In this document: positions 47,408 through 52,575 of the stretch, piece by piece
Layout: each line of letters begins with the position of its first letter
How positions within the stretch are numbered: position 1 is the stretch's first letter
Source: Escherichia phage teqskov
Sequence record: NC_054934.1
Length of the DNA: 64,000 nucleotides
Direction: 5' to 3' (one strand)
Notes under the pieces: model-generated
The model's input: the letters and a program-made list of their open reading frames with translations, nothing else
Told to the model about the DNA's origin: nothing
Databases searched by the model: none
Position numbers and translations under genes: made by a program

Positions 47408-48104
<697 letters not shown>

Positions 48105-48116
48105 CTTCATAAAGTT

Positions 48117-48146
48117 GTTTACACGCTGATGAGGTAGTGATACTAT
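48117..48146 (+). promoter_or_regulatory. T4-type early promoter (GTTTAC-N18-TACTAT), ip cassette 1
   Basis: -35 at 48117, extended -10 TG-a-TACTAT at 48141; ATG at 48177. Confidence 0.65.
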
Positions 48147-48176: not shown

Positions 48177-48434
48177 ATGAAAACTTATAAAGAGTTTGCT
48201 ACAGAAACTATTATCACTGAATCTTCTCATGGTATGGAAGTAAAGCTTGGAATGGCTTTAGCTGAAGCTGAGCGTCTTTTTTCTCGTATTAAAGAACTTG
48301 CTGCTGCAGTCGATCCTTCATCTTTTAAAGGAGACCAAACTAAAGTTAAAGCACTTTTAGCATTATGCTCTGATGCAGGAGAAATCGCTAAGAACGGTTC
48401 TAAGATGAAGAAACGATTAGAAGATTTAAAATAA
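48177..48434 (+). CDS. internal-protein-like small protein with capsid targeting signal (CTS)
   Basis: N-terminus MKTYKEFATE matches the CTS consensus of T4 internal proteins; own early promoter. Confidence 0.6.
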   Translation: MKTYKEFATETIITESSHGMEVKLGMALAEAERLFSRIKELAAAVDPSSFKGDQTKVKALLALCSDAGEIAKNGSKMKKRLEDLK

Positions 48435-48512: not shown

Positions 48513-48746
48513 ATGAAAACGTATCAAGAATTTATTGCTGAAGCTGCTGATGTAAAAGTTGAGTTTATTTACATTGGCAAGAAAGATAAAATGGGCGAAA
48601 TGCCTCATGGAGTTCTTCGTGATGCATTAGATAATTTCGGTCAACTCGGTGGTGAAGAGTTTGGTGATTATTTTGTTATCTATGGACCAGAAAAAGTCAT
48701 CGAGAAATGGGCTGATAAATATAAATCAATTTTTCGTAAAAAATAA
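48513..48746 (+). CDS. internal-protein-like small protein with CTS (IPI-family candidate)
   Basis: ORF-track start 48495 is GTG; ATG at 48513 with GGAGAA upstream gives MKTYQEFIAEA... (77 aa); own early promoter. Confidence 0.6.
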   Translation: MKTYQEFIAEAADVKVEFIYIGKKDKMGEMPHGVLRDALDNFGQLGGEEFGDYFVIYGPEKVIEKWADKYKSIFRKK

Positions 48747-48776
48747 GTTTACTTTTAGATAGGGTAGTGATACTAT
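48747..48776 (+). promoter_or_regulatory. T4-type early promoter (GTTTAC-N18-TACTAT), cassette 3
   Basis: -35 at 48747, -10 at 48771; ATG at 48805. Confidence 0.65.
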
Positions 48777-48804
48777 TACCCTATCTACTACTGAGGAGAA
48801 TAAA

Positions 48805-48990
48805 ATGAAACGTTGTGAATTAATTCGAAATGTTGCTATTGCAATTTCTGCTTCCGCTTTTAGTTTTTCAATGTTTGTTGGATTTATATGCGGATTATTA
48901 ACTACAGCAGAAAATGTGTTTTCACTTGTAGTAGCATTTTTAATTGGTTTAATCGCTATCGTTATGGATAAAATTTCTAAAGGTGAATAG
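48805..48990 (+). CDS. small hydrophobic membrane protein (61 aa, two predicted TM helices)
   Basis: own early promoter; GAGGAG upstream of ATG; hydrophobic composition. Confidence 0.5.
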   Translation: MKRCELIRNVAIAISASAFSFSMFVGFICGLLTTAENVFSLVVAFLIGLIAIVMDKISKGE

Positions 48991-49401
48991 ATGAGTATTA
49001 ACGAATATTATGTTTATGCCGGGGATTATGCAAATCCTTCTCATTTTGAAGGTAATTTAATACCTGATAAAGTTTTTAATACTCCTTTTGAAGCGTGGAG
49101 TTGGATTGAAAGTAAAAATGGATTTTCTTACCGTTATGTTGAAGTAACTGATTGGAGAGGAACTAAATATCCTAAAGACCATTATTACGTAAATCCATCT
49201 AAGGTAAATTTTCTTTTATTCGCAGGTGATAATTATTATCCTTGTGGCGGATATGATGATTTAATTGCGTATGCTGAAACAGAAGATAAACTGCGTGATA
49301 TCATTAAAGAAAATGAAAATAAACCAGATTATGGTTCCAATCGTTTCGACTGGTGGCAAATCGTAAATGCCCATACTCATGCTATCGTTGATAGAGGCTG
49401 A
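48991..49401 (+). CDS. hypothetical protein (136 aa)
   Basis: ORF with phage-like composition; coupled to downstream ORF. Confidence 0.5.
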   Translation: MSINEYYVYAGDYANPSHFEGNLIPDKVFNTPFEAWSWIESKNGFSYRYVEVTDWRGTKYPKDHYYVNPSKVNFLLFAGDNYYPCGGYDDLIAYAETEDKLRDIIKENENKPDYGSNRFDWWQIVNAHTHAIVDRG

Positions 49402-49403
49402 TA

Positions 49404-49697
49404 ATGATTCTTTATGCTAAAGTATCATCCATTGAAAATGGATATAAATATGATCAAGAAGCAGCTAAAGCCTTGATTGATGATTATGGCATTTTAACAT
49501 GTTTTGAAGTTGAAAAGGTTTACATTGACCGTTCATCTTCTCAGGTTAAATTAGTGAAGGAAGACCGTAAATTTAATACAGTAAATTTTGATTTCTTTAT
49601 TGAAACGGAAAAAGGTCCTCTTGAATATGATATTTTCAAGAATCCTTTGGGTCTTGAATGTATTGAATATACTTACATTAATATGGTGAGCAAATGA
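49404..49697 (+). CDS. hypothetical protein (97 aa)
   Basis: ORF 2 nt after previous stop. Confidence 0.5.
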   Translation: MILYAKVSSIENGYKYDQEAAKALIDDYGILTCFEVEKVYIDRSSSQVKLVKEDRKFNTVNFDFFIETEKGPLEYDIFKNPLGLECIEYTYINMVSK

Positions 49698-50209
49698 ATA
49701 TTTGTTTAGGTACTACAATTCCACAGGGTTACGTAATTGATGTCACTACCTGGGAAAATGATGGTGACAACTATAAAACTAAAACACTGTTTGGCGTAGA
49801 AGAGCATGAAATCTTACAATTCCAATATCTTTTAAAGAAGTTTAAAAGCAGACATTCTAGTACTAAAGCTGAACGTTATTGTGGTAATGGCTTGTTCAGC
49901 GAGCAATCGCTTTTTATTTATGAATACTTGGTTGAAGGACTGTTCTCAGAACAACTTTATCCAGAATTCATTAAAAAGGTCTTTGATATAGAAGTTGACC
50001 TTGGTAATAAATCCGAAGAAGACGAAGAACGCATATTTGACTTATTCTTTGTGAATGGTAATAAAGTGCTTGAAGGACTTATTAATATTTTAGGTAATGC
50101 TTCTGAGTATTATGATTATGATTTTTTGCGTGTAGTTGAGAGTGTTAAATACTCTTATATAGAAGAAGAAATTGTTTTGCCGACCGTTAAAATGTTTAAT
50201 TTGCTTTAA
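49694..50209 (+). CDS. hypothetical protein (171 aa)
   Basis: ATGA overlap with previous ORF. Confidence 0.5.
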   Translation: MNICLGTTIPQGYVIDVTTWENDGDNYKTKTLFGVEEHEILQFQYLLKKFKSRHSSTKAERYCGNGLFSEQSLFIYEYLVEGLFSEQLYPEFIKKVFDIEVDLGNKSEEDEERIFDLFFVNGNKVLEGLINILGNASEYYDYDFLRVVESVKYSYIEEEIVLPTVKMFNLL

Positions 50210-50295
50210 GAATTATTTGTTATTATTAACTCATACCGCACTGATTAATACCCTCTATCATCAAGGGTTCTTGTTTGAGAGCCTTTGTTAATAAT

Positions 50296-50368
50296 TGGGA
50301 ATTAGCCAAGTTGGTAAGGCATAGCACTTTGACTGCTAGATGCAAAGGTTCGAGTCCTTTATTCCCAG
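50296..50368 (+). tRNA. tRNA-Gln (anticodon TTG)
   Basis: cloverleaf folded by hand: acceptor TGGGAAT/ATTCCCA, anticodon stem TAGCA/TGCTA, loop CTTTGAC, T-loop TTCGAGT. Confidence 0.85.
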
Positions 50369-50369
50369 C

Positions 50370-50456
50370 GCGAGAATGGTCAAATTGGTAAAGGCACAGC
50401 ACTTAAAATGCTGCGGAATGATTTCCTTGTGGGTTCGAGTCCCACTTCTCGCACCA
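50370..50456 (+). tRNA. tRNA-Leu (anticodon TAA), long variable arm, encoded CCA
   Basis: acceptor GCGAGAA/TTCTCGC; anticodon stem CAGCA/TGCTG, loop CTTAAAA. Confidence 0.85.
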
Positions 50457-50461
50457 AATTT

Positions 50462-50536
<75 letters not shown>

Positions 50537-50545
50537 TTTAATTTA

Positions 50546-50619
50546 CTCCGTGTAGCTCAGTTTGGTAGAGCGTCTGCTTTGGGAGCAGAATGTCGTAGGT
50601 TCAAATCCTGCCGCGGAGA
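50546..50619 (+). tRNA. tRNA-Pro (anticodon TGG)
   Basis: acceptor CTCCGTG/CGCGGAG (one G-T pair); anticodon stem TCTGC/GCAGA, loop TTTGGGA; T-loop TTCAAAT. Confidence 0.85.
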
Positions 50620-50621
50620 CT

Positions 50622-50711
50622 GGAGGCGTGGCAGAGTGGTTTAATGCACCGGTCTTGAAAACCGGCAGTCGCTCCGGCGACTCATAGGTTCAAATCCTAT
50701 CGCCTCCGCCA
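50622..50711 (+). tRNA. tRNA-Ser (anticodon TGA), long variable arm, encoded CCA
   Basis: acceptor GGAGGCG/CGCCTCC; anticodon stem CCGGT/ACCGG, loop CTTGAAA. Confidence 0.85.
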
Positions 50712-50716
50712 GTTTT

Positions 50717-50792
50717 GCTGATTTAGCTCAGTAGGTAGAGCAGTTGACTGTTAATCAATTGGTCCATGGTTCGAATCCATGCATGTCCGCCA
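50717..50792 (+). tRNA. aberrant tRNA-like gene (Asn-type anticodon GTT) with non-pairing acceptor stem; probable chimeric or pseudo-tRNA
   Basis: D-arm, anticodon arm (GTTGA-CTGTTAA-TCAAT) and T-arm (CATGG-TTCGAAT-CCATG) fold, but 5' acceptor GCTGATT cannot pair with 3' CATGTCC (3 of 7 pairs); ends in GCCA. Confidence 0.5.
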
Positions 50793-50918
50793 AACTTGTG
50801 ACAGTTGTCACATTAATATCTACTTGACGCGATTATAGGGGTTGAACTGATCACACTTCTCTTAATTTCGTGTGAAGACATCTTGATTGTTGGAGTAGGT
50901 ATTGCTGTGAACTAATTA

Positions 50919-50995
50919 CGGGGTGTAACTCAATTGTATAGAGTAGCGGTCCTCTAAACCGCAGGTTAAAGGTTAGAATCCTTTCACCCTGACCA
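50919..50995 (+). tRNA. tRNA-Arg (anticodon TCT), encoded CCA
   Basis: acceptor CGGGGTG/CACCCTG (one G-T pair); anticodon stem GCGGT/ACCGC, loop CCTCTAA; T-loop TTAGAAT. Confidence 0.85.
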
Positions 50996-51016: not shown

Positions 51017-51571
51017 ATGAGAAGTGATGTAGACTGGGACCAAATTAATTTGGCTATAAAAGCTGGATTAATATACCATGGTAATTTTGAAATAACACAA
51101 GAACTAATTGAAAATGTTGCTTTTCTTAAAATAACAGATAAGAAAAAATTCTTTTCTATGACTGAAGCCAAACGCTTGTCAAAATGGAAAGTATTTTGTA
51201 GGACTGCCGCCCTAAATCTTTTGAAATTTAAAGATGAATTTGATATAGAAAAAAGCTATCGACAGGCTTTCGTATACATAATGGTAGATACTACAAATCC
51301 TAATTATTATAAAATAGGAAGAAGTATAGAACCTGATGTTAGAGTTATAACAGCAAATACATTTTCACCGTTTAAAAGTTTTAAAATAGTATCATTTAGA
51401 TATTCCCAGGATGCAGTAGAACTTGAAAAATATATGCACAGCATTTATAATCAGGACCATATAAATGGTGAATGGTTTTTCTTTCATGACATAAGTTCCA
51501 TAGTTAAAAAATTAGATACTAAATCTACACAATTTGAAATACCAAATGAGAAACCGGGTCGCTACCGGTAA
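51017..51571 (+). CDS. T5orf172 / GIY-YIG-like domain protein (184 aa)
   Basis: C-terminal half has VYIMVD...YYKIGRS...R......ELEKYMHSIY...GEWF, matching the T5orf172 (GIY-YIG superfamily) pattern; lies directly after tRNA-Arg. Confidence 0.55.
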   Translation: MRSDVDWDQINLAIKAGLIYHGNFEITQELIENVAFLKITDKKKFFSMTEAKRLSKWKVFCRTAALNLLKFKDEFDIEKSYRQAFVYIMVDTTNPNYYKIGRSIEPDVRVITANTFSPFKSFKIVSFRYSQDAVELEKYMHSIYNQDHINGEWFFFHDISSIVKKLDTKSTQFEIPNEKPGRYR

Positions 51572-51589: not shown

Positions 51590-51859
51590 CCTGAGTAAGG
51601 AATTGCGTTAATAATCTTTGCGTTTATTGATGCCCTCTTACATCACAGCAGAAACGGCGCACCGAATTATCGATTCGAGGAAATATCTTTGCCGTAAGCC
51701 GAGTAGCGTTTTTGACGGAACGTTCGGATATGGTCGAGATATGGCCTTTTAAAAATATTGAGTAGCGTCAACTACTTAATAACCGGGTTCAAGTCCCGGC
51801 GTTTCGTACAAACACTTGCCTTAGCAGGTGGAACCCCGACAAGGTTGCCGCAAGGCTTA
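51590..51859 (+). ncRNA. structured non-coding region, possible small stable RNA(s) as at the distal end of the T4 tRNA cluster
   Basis: no ORF; tRNA-like T-arm hairpin CCGGG-TTCAAGT-CCCGG and several inverted repeats; ends at a rho-independent terminator. Confidence 0.25.
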
Positions 51860-51886
51860 GCCCCGACCGAAAGGTTGGGGCTTTTT
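51860..51886 (+). terminator. rho-independent terminator (CCCCGACC-GAAA-GGTTGGGG then CTTTTT)
   Basis: 8-bp GC-rich stem, GAAA loop, T-run. Confidence 0.7.
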
Positions 51887-51932
51887 AGTATAAATAAGTA
51901 TATTAAAACCACGAATTAAAACAGGAAATAAG

Positions 51933-52406
51933 ATGAAATCATATGCTCAATTTTTAAATGAAGCGGTGTTAAATGAAGCATCTAGCACTGAAATTCAAGC
52001 TGTTGCAAAAGCTGCCATTGCCGCGGGTAAATATTCCTATAAAGATGCTTCCGATGAATCACGATTCCAATTTGCTCGTGATATGAAAGCCGAAGGATTT
52101 ACAGGGAATGCAGTTAGTATGGCTTGGAAAAGTTTAGTTGCTACTGGAGCTGCTTTTGCAAAGGCTTCAGGTAAACCTGCTCCTAAGGCTGATCCTAAAG
52201 CAGCACAAGAAAAAAATATTGCTAAAGGAATTATCTCTAGGTATGAAGCAATTCTTAAAGAACTTTTGATAATCAAAACTGAAGGCCAAAAGCTAGCTCG
52301 TGCTTATAGTTTCAAAGATAACCCACATGTTCACTCTCTTGAATATGTTGAAGACATCCAAAAAATTATTAAAGACCGCATTTGGTCTGCTAAACAAATC
52401 AAATAA
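51933..52406 (+). CDS. CTS-bearing putative internal (head-packaged) protein, 157 aa, Lys/Ala-rich
   Basis: N-terminus MKSYAQFLNEAVLNEA resembles the CTS with L-x-E cleavage motifs; followed by a terminator. Confidence 0.5.
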   Translation: MKSYAQFLNEAVLNEASSTEIQAVAKAAIAAGKYSYKDASDESRFQFARDMKAEGFTGNAVSMAWKSLVATGAAFAKASGKPAPKADPKAAQEKNIAKGIISRYEAILKELLIIKTEGQKLARAYSFKDNPHVHSLEYVEDIQKIIKDRIWSAKQIK

Positions 52407-52414
52407 CATTCTTA

Positions 52415-52442
52415 GCCCCAGCCGAAAGGTTGGGGCTTTTTG
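52415..52442 (+). terminator. rho-independent terminator (CCCCAGCC-GAAA-GGTTGGGG then CTTTTT), near-duplicate of the one at 51860
   Basis: stem-loop plus T-run. Confidence 0.7.
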
Positions 52443-52575
52443 GTATCTAGGCCTTTCCGGGCCTCTCTGGGCATCATTTAGTTTATACCCTTTATAATAT
52501 ATTATCCTACCTTTTAATTGTCCCTCCTGACCCTAGAATTCCCTAAAACTTTTTAAAAAATTTTTTCACAAAACT

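Follow-up and report, generated by a model that had tools for sequence, protein, structure and literature searches.

Organization of the locus

The window is the whole stretch of DNA that was analysed, 64,000 nucleotides of Escherichia phage teqskov (NC_054934.1). The source phage is a Tequatrovirus of the RB32 type: over positions 48700–50300 its sequence is 99.4–99.6% identical to those of vB_Eco_Some, R5505, AdolfPortmann and KAW1E185 and 97.6% identical to that of RB32. On the + strand, which is the early direction of T4, gene 1 is followed by 57A, 57B, two ip genes, four ORFs and the tRNA cluster. The features of the four-gene block and its borders are listed in Table 1. A preliminary description of the region, made from the sequence, had placed four ORFs in the interval from the ip locus to the tRNA cluster, and its coordinates, gene spacing and setting all hold.

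Table 1 Features of the four-gene block and its borders (window coordinates)
Feature	Position	Strand	Properties or basis
Early promoter with overlapping stem-loop (PeSL; T4 PE1 homologue)	48747–48787	+	Repeat, consensus, hairpin and alignment
trna.4	48805–48990	+	61 aa, 6.6 kDa; predicted two-helix inner-membrane hairpin
trna.3	48991–49401	+	136 aa, acidic, pI 4.85; hypervariable N-terminal half, conserved C-terminal half
trna.2	49404–49697	+	97 aa, acidic, pI 4.69; highly conserved
Putative late promoter TATAAATA	49443–49450	+	Late consensus within trna.2, at the position of T4 PL2
RB32ORF135c/RB69ORF151c family gene	49694–50209	+	171 aa, acidic, pI 4.52, net charge −14
Middle promoter of the tRNA cluster with MotA box (T4 PM2 homologue)	50200–50226	+	Motif and X03016 annotation
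tRNA cluster	50296–50995	+	Gln, Leu, Gly, Pro, Ser, truncated tRNA remnant, Arg

Read from the sequence, the stop codon of the 61-residue ORF abuts the start of the 136-residue ORF (TAG then ATG, 0-nt gap), the 136- and 97-residue ORFs are separated by 2 nt (TGAtaATG) and the 97- and 171-residue ORFs overlap in ATGA. This packing is tight enough for translational coupling of the four genes. Shine–Dalgarno-like purine runs (GAGGAG, AAGGTGA, AGAGG and GGTGAG) lie 5–9 nt before the respective ORFs. The three soluble products, Trna.3, Trna.2 and the 171-residue protein, are all acidic, with pI values of 4.5–4.9.

The genes were already known. ORF2–4 of the T4 record X03016 are the present trna.4, trna.3 and trna.2 of T4, the first three ORFs are annotated as tRNA.4, tRNA.3 and tRNA.2 in RB32, RB69 and JS10, and annotations of the genes extend across hundreds of genomes. 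The earlier view of the block as four unknown genes is right in that no function is known for any of them, but three are long-catalogued T4 ORFs. In T4, trna.4–trna.2 have the same order, the same place between the ip locus and tRNA-Gln and the same upstream early promoter and stem-loop; the differences are the end of Trna.2 (…HHKW in T4) and the ip genes, T4 having ipI where the window carries two different ones. Trna.4, the first gene product after the ip locus, is 100% identical to T4 Trna.4 (NP_049748) and matches phrog_1692 (E = 6e-35 over residues 1–61). It has two hydrophobic stretches, charged ends and a GRAVY of 1.22, in keeping with the two-helix membrane protein predicted previously. 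Trna.3 is 100% identical to T4 ORF3 (NP_049747; phrog_1411); PF26894 is assigned to every Trna.3 relative in a precomputed table, and the protein belongs to the T4 Trna.3 family. Trna.2 is ∼93–97% identical to T4 Trna.2 (NP_049746) apart from its C-terminal tail and matches phrog_2023 (E = 1e-48), and PF27001 is found on all of its relatives. The 171-residue protein is 97% identical to RB32ORF135c and 83% identical to RB69ORF151c, which occupy the same place after trna.2. RB32ORF135c is itself annotated in RB32 as ‘similar to RB69ORF151c, 44RRORF127c’, a family that corresponds to phrog_2290 and from which the protein of the window shows no substantive difference.

Promoters and stem-loops

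The preliminary description assigned the block to a third early promoter, and this assignment stands. The promoter begins at 48747, 58 nt upstream of the block, and comprises a −35 element GTTTACT (48747–48753), a 17-nt spacer with TG at −15/−14 and a −10 element TACTAT (48771–48776). The stretch 48748–48776 (TTTACT-N17-TACTAT) matches the T4/PST early-promoter consensus TTTACW-N17-TAYWAT, which was published together with the definition of the PeSL (PMC4122927); the window contains seven matches to this consensus where 0.34 would be expected, and all seven lie on the + strand. A 39-nt repeat (family D3) occurs here in three copies: those at 48117 and 48447 lie ahead of the two ip genes and the third is the promoter at 48747, so that the three copies flank the ip genes. 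All three overlap stable hairpins (−16 to −18.5 kcal/mol, z of −3.1 to −4.5); the hairpin at 48756–48787 has −18.5 kcal/mol and z = −3.4, and 0 of 200 shuffled sequences were equally stable. In the T4 record X03016 the positions that align with this site are annotated as PE1 and as ‘pot. IpI terminator’. Judging from the early-class RNAs of the T4 orthologues, the promoter at 48747 is presumably active early.

The arrangement is like that of the PeSL (promoter-early stem-loop) cassettes described from hyperplastic regions of T4-type phage genomes (PMC2839356, PMC4122927) in its combination of promoter and hairpin, in the placing of repeats at gene boundaries and in the interchangeable ip genes. 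It differs in that the third copy in the window borders conserved, unshuffled genes, and only the upstream ip genes vary between phages.

Two further promoter motifs lie inside the block. The putative late promoter TATAAATA is offset by +39 from the start codon of trna.2, which equals the offset of PL2 in X03016. For middle promoters we used a MotA criterion of (a/t)(a/t)TGCTTtA centred ∼30 nt before the transcription start and 11–13 nt before a TAnnnT −10 element. The MotA box TTTGCTTTA at 50200–50208 is formed by the final codons and the stop codon of the 171-residue ORF and is followed after a 12-nt spacer by the −10 element TATTAT (50221–50226); PM2 is annotated at the homologous site of T4 (X03016). 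This ORF end supplies one of the ten matches to the pattern TGCTTYA-N11–13-TANNNT that the window contains, where 2.5 would be expected. The end of the 171-residue gene thus appears to double as the promoter of the tRNAs. No convincing terminator was found between this ORF and tRNA-Gln, so the early transcript probably runs on into the tRNA cluster.

Loss of the fourth gene in T4 and distribution of the block

When the window, RB32 and T4 are aligned, ∼0.5 kb is seen to be missing from T4 between AAATG motifs at 49692–49696 and 50190–50194. The junction is ambiguous by a few bases; the final 20 nt of the 171-residue ORF are retained, and these hold the TTTGCTTTA MotA box. This 20-nt stretch would have survived the deletion because the gene end doubles as the tRNA promoter, and the C-terminus of T4 Trna.2 differs because the next gene is deleted. 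In RB69, JS10 and T4-like phages that are further removed, a homologue of the 171-residue gene stands at the corresponding place; its presence is therefore ancestral and the T4 state is a loss.

A tblastn search of 50,697 phage records matched Trna.4 in 789, Trna.3 in 766, Trna.2 in 802 and the 171-residue protein in 582. With a gp1 at least 90% identical as a proxy for Tequatrovirus (502 records), trna.4 and trna.2 are effectively universal in this genus (504 records have a Trna.4 with 95% identity or more, and 515 a Trna.2 with 90% or more), and both are also common among Mosigvirus and Dhakavirus. Trna.3 is never missing, but its sequence is mosaic. The comparison of presence and absence across T-even genomes that the preliminary description had called for separates the fourth gene from the other three: the full four-gene block is found in ∼116 records, while ∼382 have an uninterrupted T4-type deletion junction. 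Among the phages with all four genes are AdolfPortmann and TadeuszReichstein of the BASEL set, with 98.6–99.5% identity to the window in this region. The 171-residue gene is thus present in ∼23% of the Tequatrovirus records and missing from ∼76%. Mosigvirus and Dhakavirus show the same polymorphism, and here trna.2 is sometimes missing too. The block is accordingly not a set of four uniformly distributed core T4 ORFs with known functions. The location had also been called a typical accessory position; this fits the dispensability of the genes in T4 (see below) and the patchy fourth gene, but trna.4, trna.3 and trna.2 are not variable in presence.

What varies in trna.3 is its sequence. When Kha5h, RB68 and WilhelmHis are compared with the window, the nucleotide identity is 95–100% over trna.4 and trna.2 and drops to 40–67% over 49001–49240. 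The hypervariable N-terminal half of Trna.3 sits between almost invariant neighbouring genes. Across 14 divergent clusters of Trna.3, the N-terminal 70 residues are 23–51% identical to the protein of the window and the C-terminal 66 residues are 70–86% identical; the conserved part carries the motif FLLFAGDNYYPxGG…FDWWQIV. An internal duplication (YVYAGDYxNP versus LLFAGDNYYP) was considered and rejected: hhalign of the N-terminal against the C-terminal half gave E = 0.47 and aligned an unrelated stretch. The Trna.3 alleles and the fourth gene occur in different combinations. The window has the reference allele with the 171-residue gene and T4 has the same allele without it; Kha5h has a divergent allele (56–57% identical) with the gene and RB68 has a divergent allele (likewise 56–57% identical) without it. 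Recombination has therefore taken place within the block.

Coding status, expression and dispensability

All four ORFs are genuine protein-coding genes under purifying selection, with dN/dS values of 0.08–0.22; against RB69 and JS10 the values are 0.10–0.22 (dS of 0.7–2.6), comparable to gp1, and for trna.4 they are 0.10–0.21. During T4 infection trna.2 and trna.3 appear early as both RNA and protein and trna.4 early as RNA (PMC9697503). In the HIDEN-SEQ transposon-sequencing tables for T4 on K-12 (bioRxiv 10.1101/2025.11.20.689424) trna.2, trna.3 and trna.4 are classed as ‘Non-essential’, with 23/25, 39/40 and 16/17 TA sites hit in the three genes. One conditional table of that work gives no significant change for them (adjusted p = 1.0). 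The sheets of the supplement include CBASS, RexAB, RnlAB, DarTG1, DarTG2, M9, clinical strains and Mokosh, and the main text of the paper names no trna genes.

[quoted passage not shown] The enrichment of Trna.2 with DRT1 could be indirect, for example via DNA adducts.

Searches for related proteins and folds

The preliminary description recognised no motif in the four proteins, and our searches bear this out. Pfam, NCBIfam and PADLOC gave no family for any of the four, only sub-threshold noise (DUF7554, XapX, TusC), and searches of the PDB by sequence or by broad profile, Trna.2 included, gave nothing significant. The Pfam set searched did not contain PF26894, hence the lack of a Trna.3 match by hmmscan. 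None of the four ORFs matched a curated defence or anti-defence family in PADLOC, Pfam or NCBIfam; PADLOC covers defence rather than anti-defence proteins, and the absence of a match to it says little either way. No homology of the four proteins to a characterized protein, domain or solved fold was thus detected. A resemblance of the stretch GYV..DDGNYKT to GFP was attributed to chance. No correspondence was established between the four genes and those of a Mosigvirus growth-inhibition screen.

Relatives of Trna.2 form 38 clusters among 1.84 billion representatives and are mostly stand-alone proteins of 84–105 residues without annotated domains; the N-terminal extensions of five longer relatives (164–223 residues) contain no Pfam domain.

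The 171-residue protein belongs to a broad family, which in a metagenome scan consisted of stand-alone phage proteins of 120–190 residues. In an alignment of 64 diverse members, Glu21, Asn22, Asp23, Gly24, Asp25 and Arg146 are invariant and Gly12, Tyr13, Trp20, Gly64 and Asn65 are nearly so. The protein of the window has all of the family features: the W-E-N-D-G-D loop near the N-terminus, the G-N motif and the C-terminal R-V-x-E. That polar residues are invariant at 25–35% overall identity suggests a ligand-binding, metal-binding or catalytic site. We found no Pfam model, solved structure or described function for the family, and the fold of the 171-residue protein, although predicted with confidence, matches no solved structure. 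RB69ORF151c and RB32ORF135c were named in none of the papers found in a literature search. Outside T4-like synteny the family has no recurrent neighbour genes.

Interpretation of the block

The locus is the RB32-type trna.4–trna.3–trna.2 block together with a fourth gene that T4 has lost, and we consider it probable that it forms an accessory early operon directed at the host, most plausibly in counter-defence or host takeover. The transcript would extend from the early promoter into the tRNA cluster, and the products would bind host components soon after infection rather than act as classical enzymes. Trna.4 would form a two-helix hairpin inserted in the inner membrane. In Trna.3 the fast-diverging N-terminal domain may contact a variable partner, with the conserved C-terminal domain serving a constant function, while the small, acidic Trna.2 would associate with the DRT1 defence complex or with its DNA adducts. 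The 171-residue protein would expose the invariant acidic W-E-N-D-G-D loop together with Gly64–Asn65 and Arg146 in an arrangement resembling a metal-binding or ligand-binding site. Counter-defence is the leading guess, given that Trna.3 has a diversifying N-terminal domain and that Trna.2 was enriched with DRT1.

The neighbourhood offers precedents, as the injected internal proteins include restriction inhibitors and 57B is the anti-CBASS nuclease Acb1, which in the window is 100% identical to its T4 version. Like the block, 57B/Acb1 and IPI* (an inhibitor of GmrSD) are early or injected, small, dispensable on laboratory hosts and encoded between gene 1 and the tRNAs. The block proteins, however, have no similarity in sequence or fold to Acb1 or the internal proteins, and the sole lead to defence is that between Trna.2 and DRT1. 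The strictly invariant polar residues of the 171-residue family also speak against a protein-binding inhibitor, as they are a better fit to an enzyme or a ligand binder. A possible relation between the McrBC inhibitor bas37_0260 and the ip gene upstream was considered; the near-identical phage TadeuszReichstein is Bas43, so no link was established.

The main rival reading, possible if rather unlikely, is that the genes have a role in general host takeover or in the physiology of the phage (membrane, metabolism or growth inhibition) and not in counter-defence; Trna.4 could then modulate an envelope process and the 171-residue protein could be a metal-dependent enzyme acting on nucleotides or other small molecules. 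Small early proteins of T-even phages often target essential host processes, as Emp of Mosigvirus AV110 does with MreBCD, and nearly all T-even phages carry trna.4 and trna.2. The invariance of the acidic loop and the G-N motif over 64 divergent environmental phages also points to a universal ligand rather than to a strain-specific defence protein. Such a role is harder to reconcile with the dispensability of the three T4 genes on K-12 in rich medium, with the ∼76% of Tequatrovirus records that do without the 171-residue gene and with the failure to detect an enzyme fold or family.

A more specific proposal, which we regard as distinctly unlikely, is that the genes form an unrecognised counter-defence set. 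Trna.2 would directly bind or inhibit the DRT1 reverse-transcriptase defence system, and the W-E-N-D-G-D protein would represent a widespread new fold, with a small-molecule or metal-dependent host factor as the target that it binds or degrades. If the proposal is true, T4 has lost one arm of its counter-defence toolkit.

The position of the block next to the tRNA genes raises the question of whether the 171-residue protein, and perhaps Trna.2, acts with the phage tRNAs, be it in their maturation, in protection from anticodon nucleases or in regulation. tRNA-Gln starts 86 nt downstream of the 171-residue ORF in the window, and the corresponding gene-to-tRNA distances are 79 nt in RB69 and 141 nt in the jumbo phage Muenster, which is outside the Straboviridae. 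The gene is found inside the tRNA clusters of Klebsiella phage Lion and contig L025, and Trna.2-like genes lie inside those of Erwinia phage Cronus, a 371-kb contig and L053. This proximity is not general, however: a tRNA lies within 1 kb at three of 39 environmental loci, with none within 5 kb at 34 of the 39, and six of 12 viral-contig loci have no tRNA in a flank of ∼4–6 kb. Moreover, the same tRNAs are retained in T4 and in ∼380 relatives that lack the 171-residue gene, and the absence of a recurrent neighbour outside T4-like synteny also counts against a shared function. The adjacency is better explained by conserved synteny, perhaps with hitch-hiking in tRNA regions, which are rich in homing endonucleases (SegB paper), than by function, and we judge a role with the tRNAs to be improbable.

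It is very improbable that the products are injected internal head proteins of the virion like those of the neighbouring ip genes. The block does follow the ip locus directly and has the same type of promoter cassette ahead of it, but the capsid-targeting leader MKTY(K/Q)EF..E, which the prohead protease cleaves and which is present in both upstream ip ORFs, occurs in none of the four ORFs of the block; the PHROGs class is unknown rather than head and packaging, and Trna.4 is predicted to be a membrane hairpin. Finally, the idea that the ORFs are non-functional and the region is a mere 5′ leader of the tRNA precursor transcript, which its location between the promoter and the tRNAs might suggest, can for practical purposes be dismissed, as it is refuted by the dN/dS values of 0.08–0.22, the Shine–Dalgarno sites, the homologues in 580–800 phage records and the detection of the Trna.2 and Trna.3 proteins in T4 infection.

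The reading that we prefer thus remains that of an accessory, host-directed early operon. To the known genes the present analysis adds the deletion in T4 that spares the MotA box, the hypervariable N-terminal domain of Trna.3 and the breadth and invariant motif of the 171-residue family. Phages with and without the 171-residue gene, and phages with different N-terminal domains of Trna.3, provide natural isogenic-like pairs, and Trna.2 is a candidate for interaction with DRT1. The block is part of the functional dark matter in the best-studied phage.

Variation within and around the trna.4–trna.2 block

Within trna.3, divergence is sharply concentrated in the sequence for the N-terminal half of the protein. 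Nucleotide identity among Tequatroviruses is 40–67% there, whereas the flanking trna.4 and trna.2 are 95–100% identical, and this difference suggests diversifying selection or allele exchange in this half of the protein.

Features of the block, its neighbourhood and related loci (window positions unless another phage locus, L, is named)
Feature	Position	Strand	Remarks
57B gene	47646-48104	+	Immediately upstream of ip locus
Ip5-like internal-protein gene	48177-48434	+	phrog_3499
Second internal-protein gene	48513-48746	+	phrog_8111
Trna.3 N-terminal half	49001-49240	+	Divergence hotspot
Truncated tRNA	50724-50781	+	Rfam, 51 bits, model positions 8-63
184-aa ORF	51017-51571	+	Directly 3' of tRNA-Arg; MUG113 / T5orf172 domain
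Direct repeats, 36 nt, two copies	51856-51891; 52411-52446	+	92% identical
157-aa ORF	51933-52406	+	Between the repeats; phrog_2280 (function class: unknown)
Distant relatives of Trna.2 / 171-aa protein	L051 4001-4246; L052 4001-4249; L053 4001-4249; L008 4001-4474; L025 2334-2762

The 57B protein is 100% identical to that of T4, which is the anti-CBASS nuclease Acb1; the label 'RNA ligase' persists for 57B in database records. At the position of T4 ipI the window instead carries two different internal-protein genes, each with its own promoter/stem-loop cassette (an early promoter with an overlapping hairpin) and each with the MKTY(K/Q)EF capsid-targeting leader. In phage Bas37, another protein from this locus inhibits McrBC, as a recent preprint shows; that inhibitor could not be linked to either window gene.

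The distant relatives of Trna.2 and the 171-aa protein listed in the table lie within or head tRNA clusters of diverged large phages, two of them with jumbo-sized genomes; this location does not hold for most members of the two families.

Within the tRNA cluster of the window, Rfam places a truncated tRNA, not called by ARAGORN, between tRNA-Ser and tRNA-Arg. As this interval is occupied in T4 and RB32 by tRNA-Thr and tRNA-Ile, together with segB, the truncated tRNA looks like a remnant from rearrangement of the cluster. The GIY-YIG homing endonuclease SegB is a feature of the T4 and RB32 tRNA region, where the window has a 184-aa ORF. Its domain matches have E values of 2.6e-9 and 3.4e-6 and the matching PHROGs are annotated as (homing) endonuclease; it may be a mobile endonuclease gene other than SegB.

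Further downstream, both 36-nt repeats are G+C-rich terminator-like hairpins, and the RB32 annotation records the same repeat as a '34 bp imperfect direct repeat'. Together with these flanking repeats, the 157-aa ORF has the appearance of a cassette that is mobile or has been shuffled.
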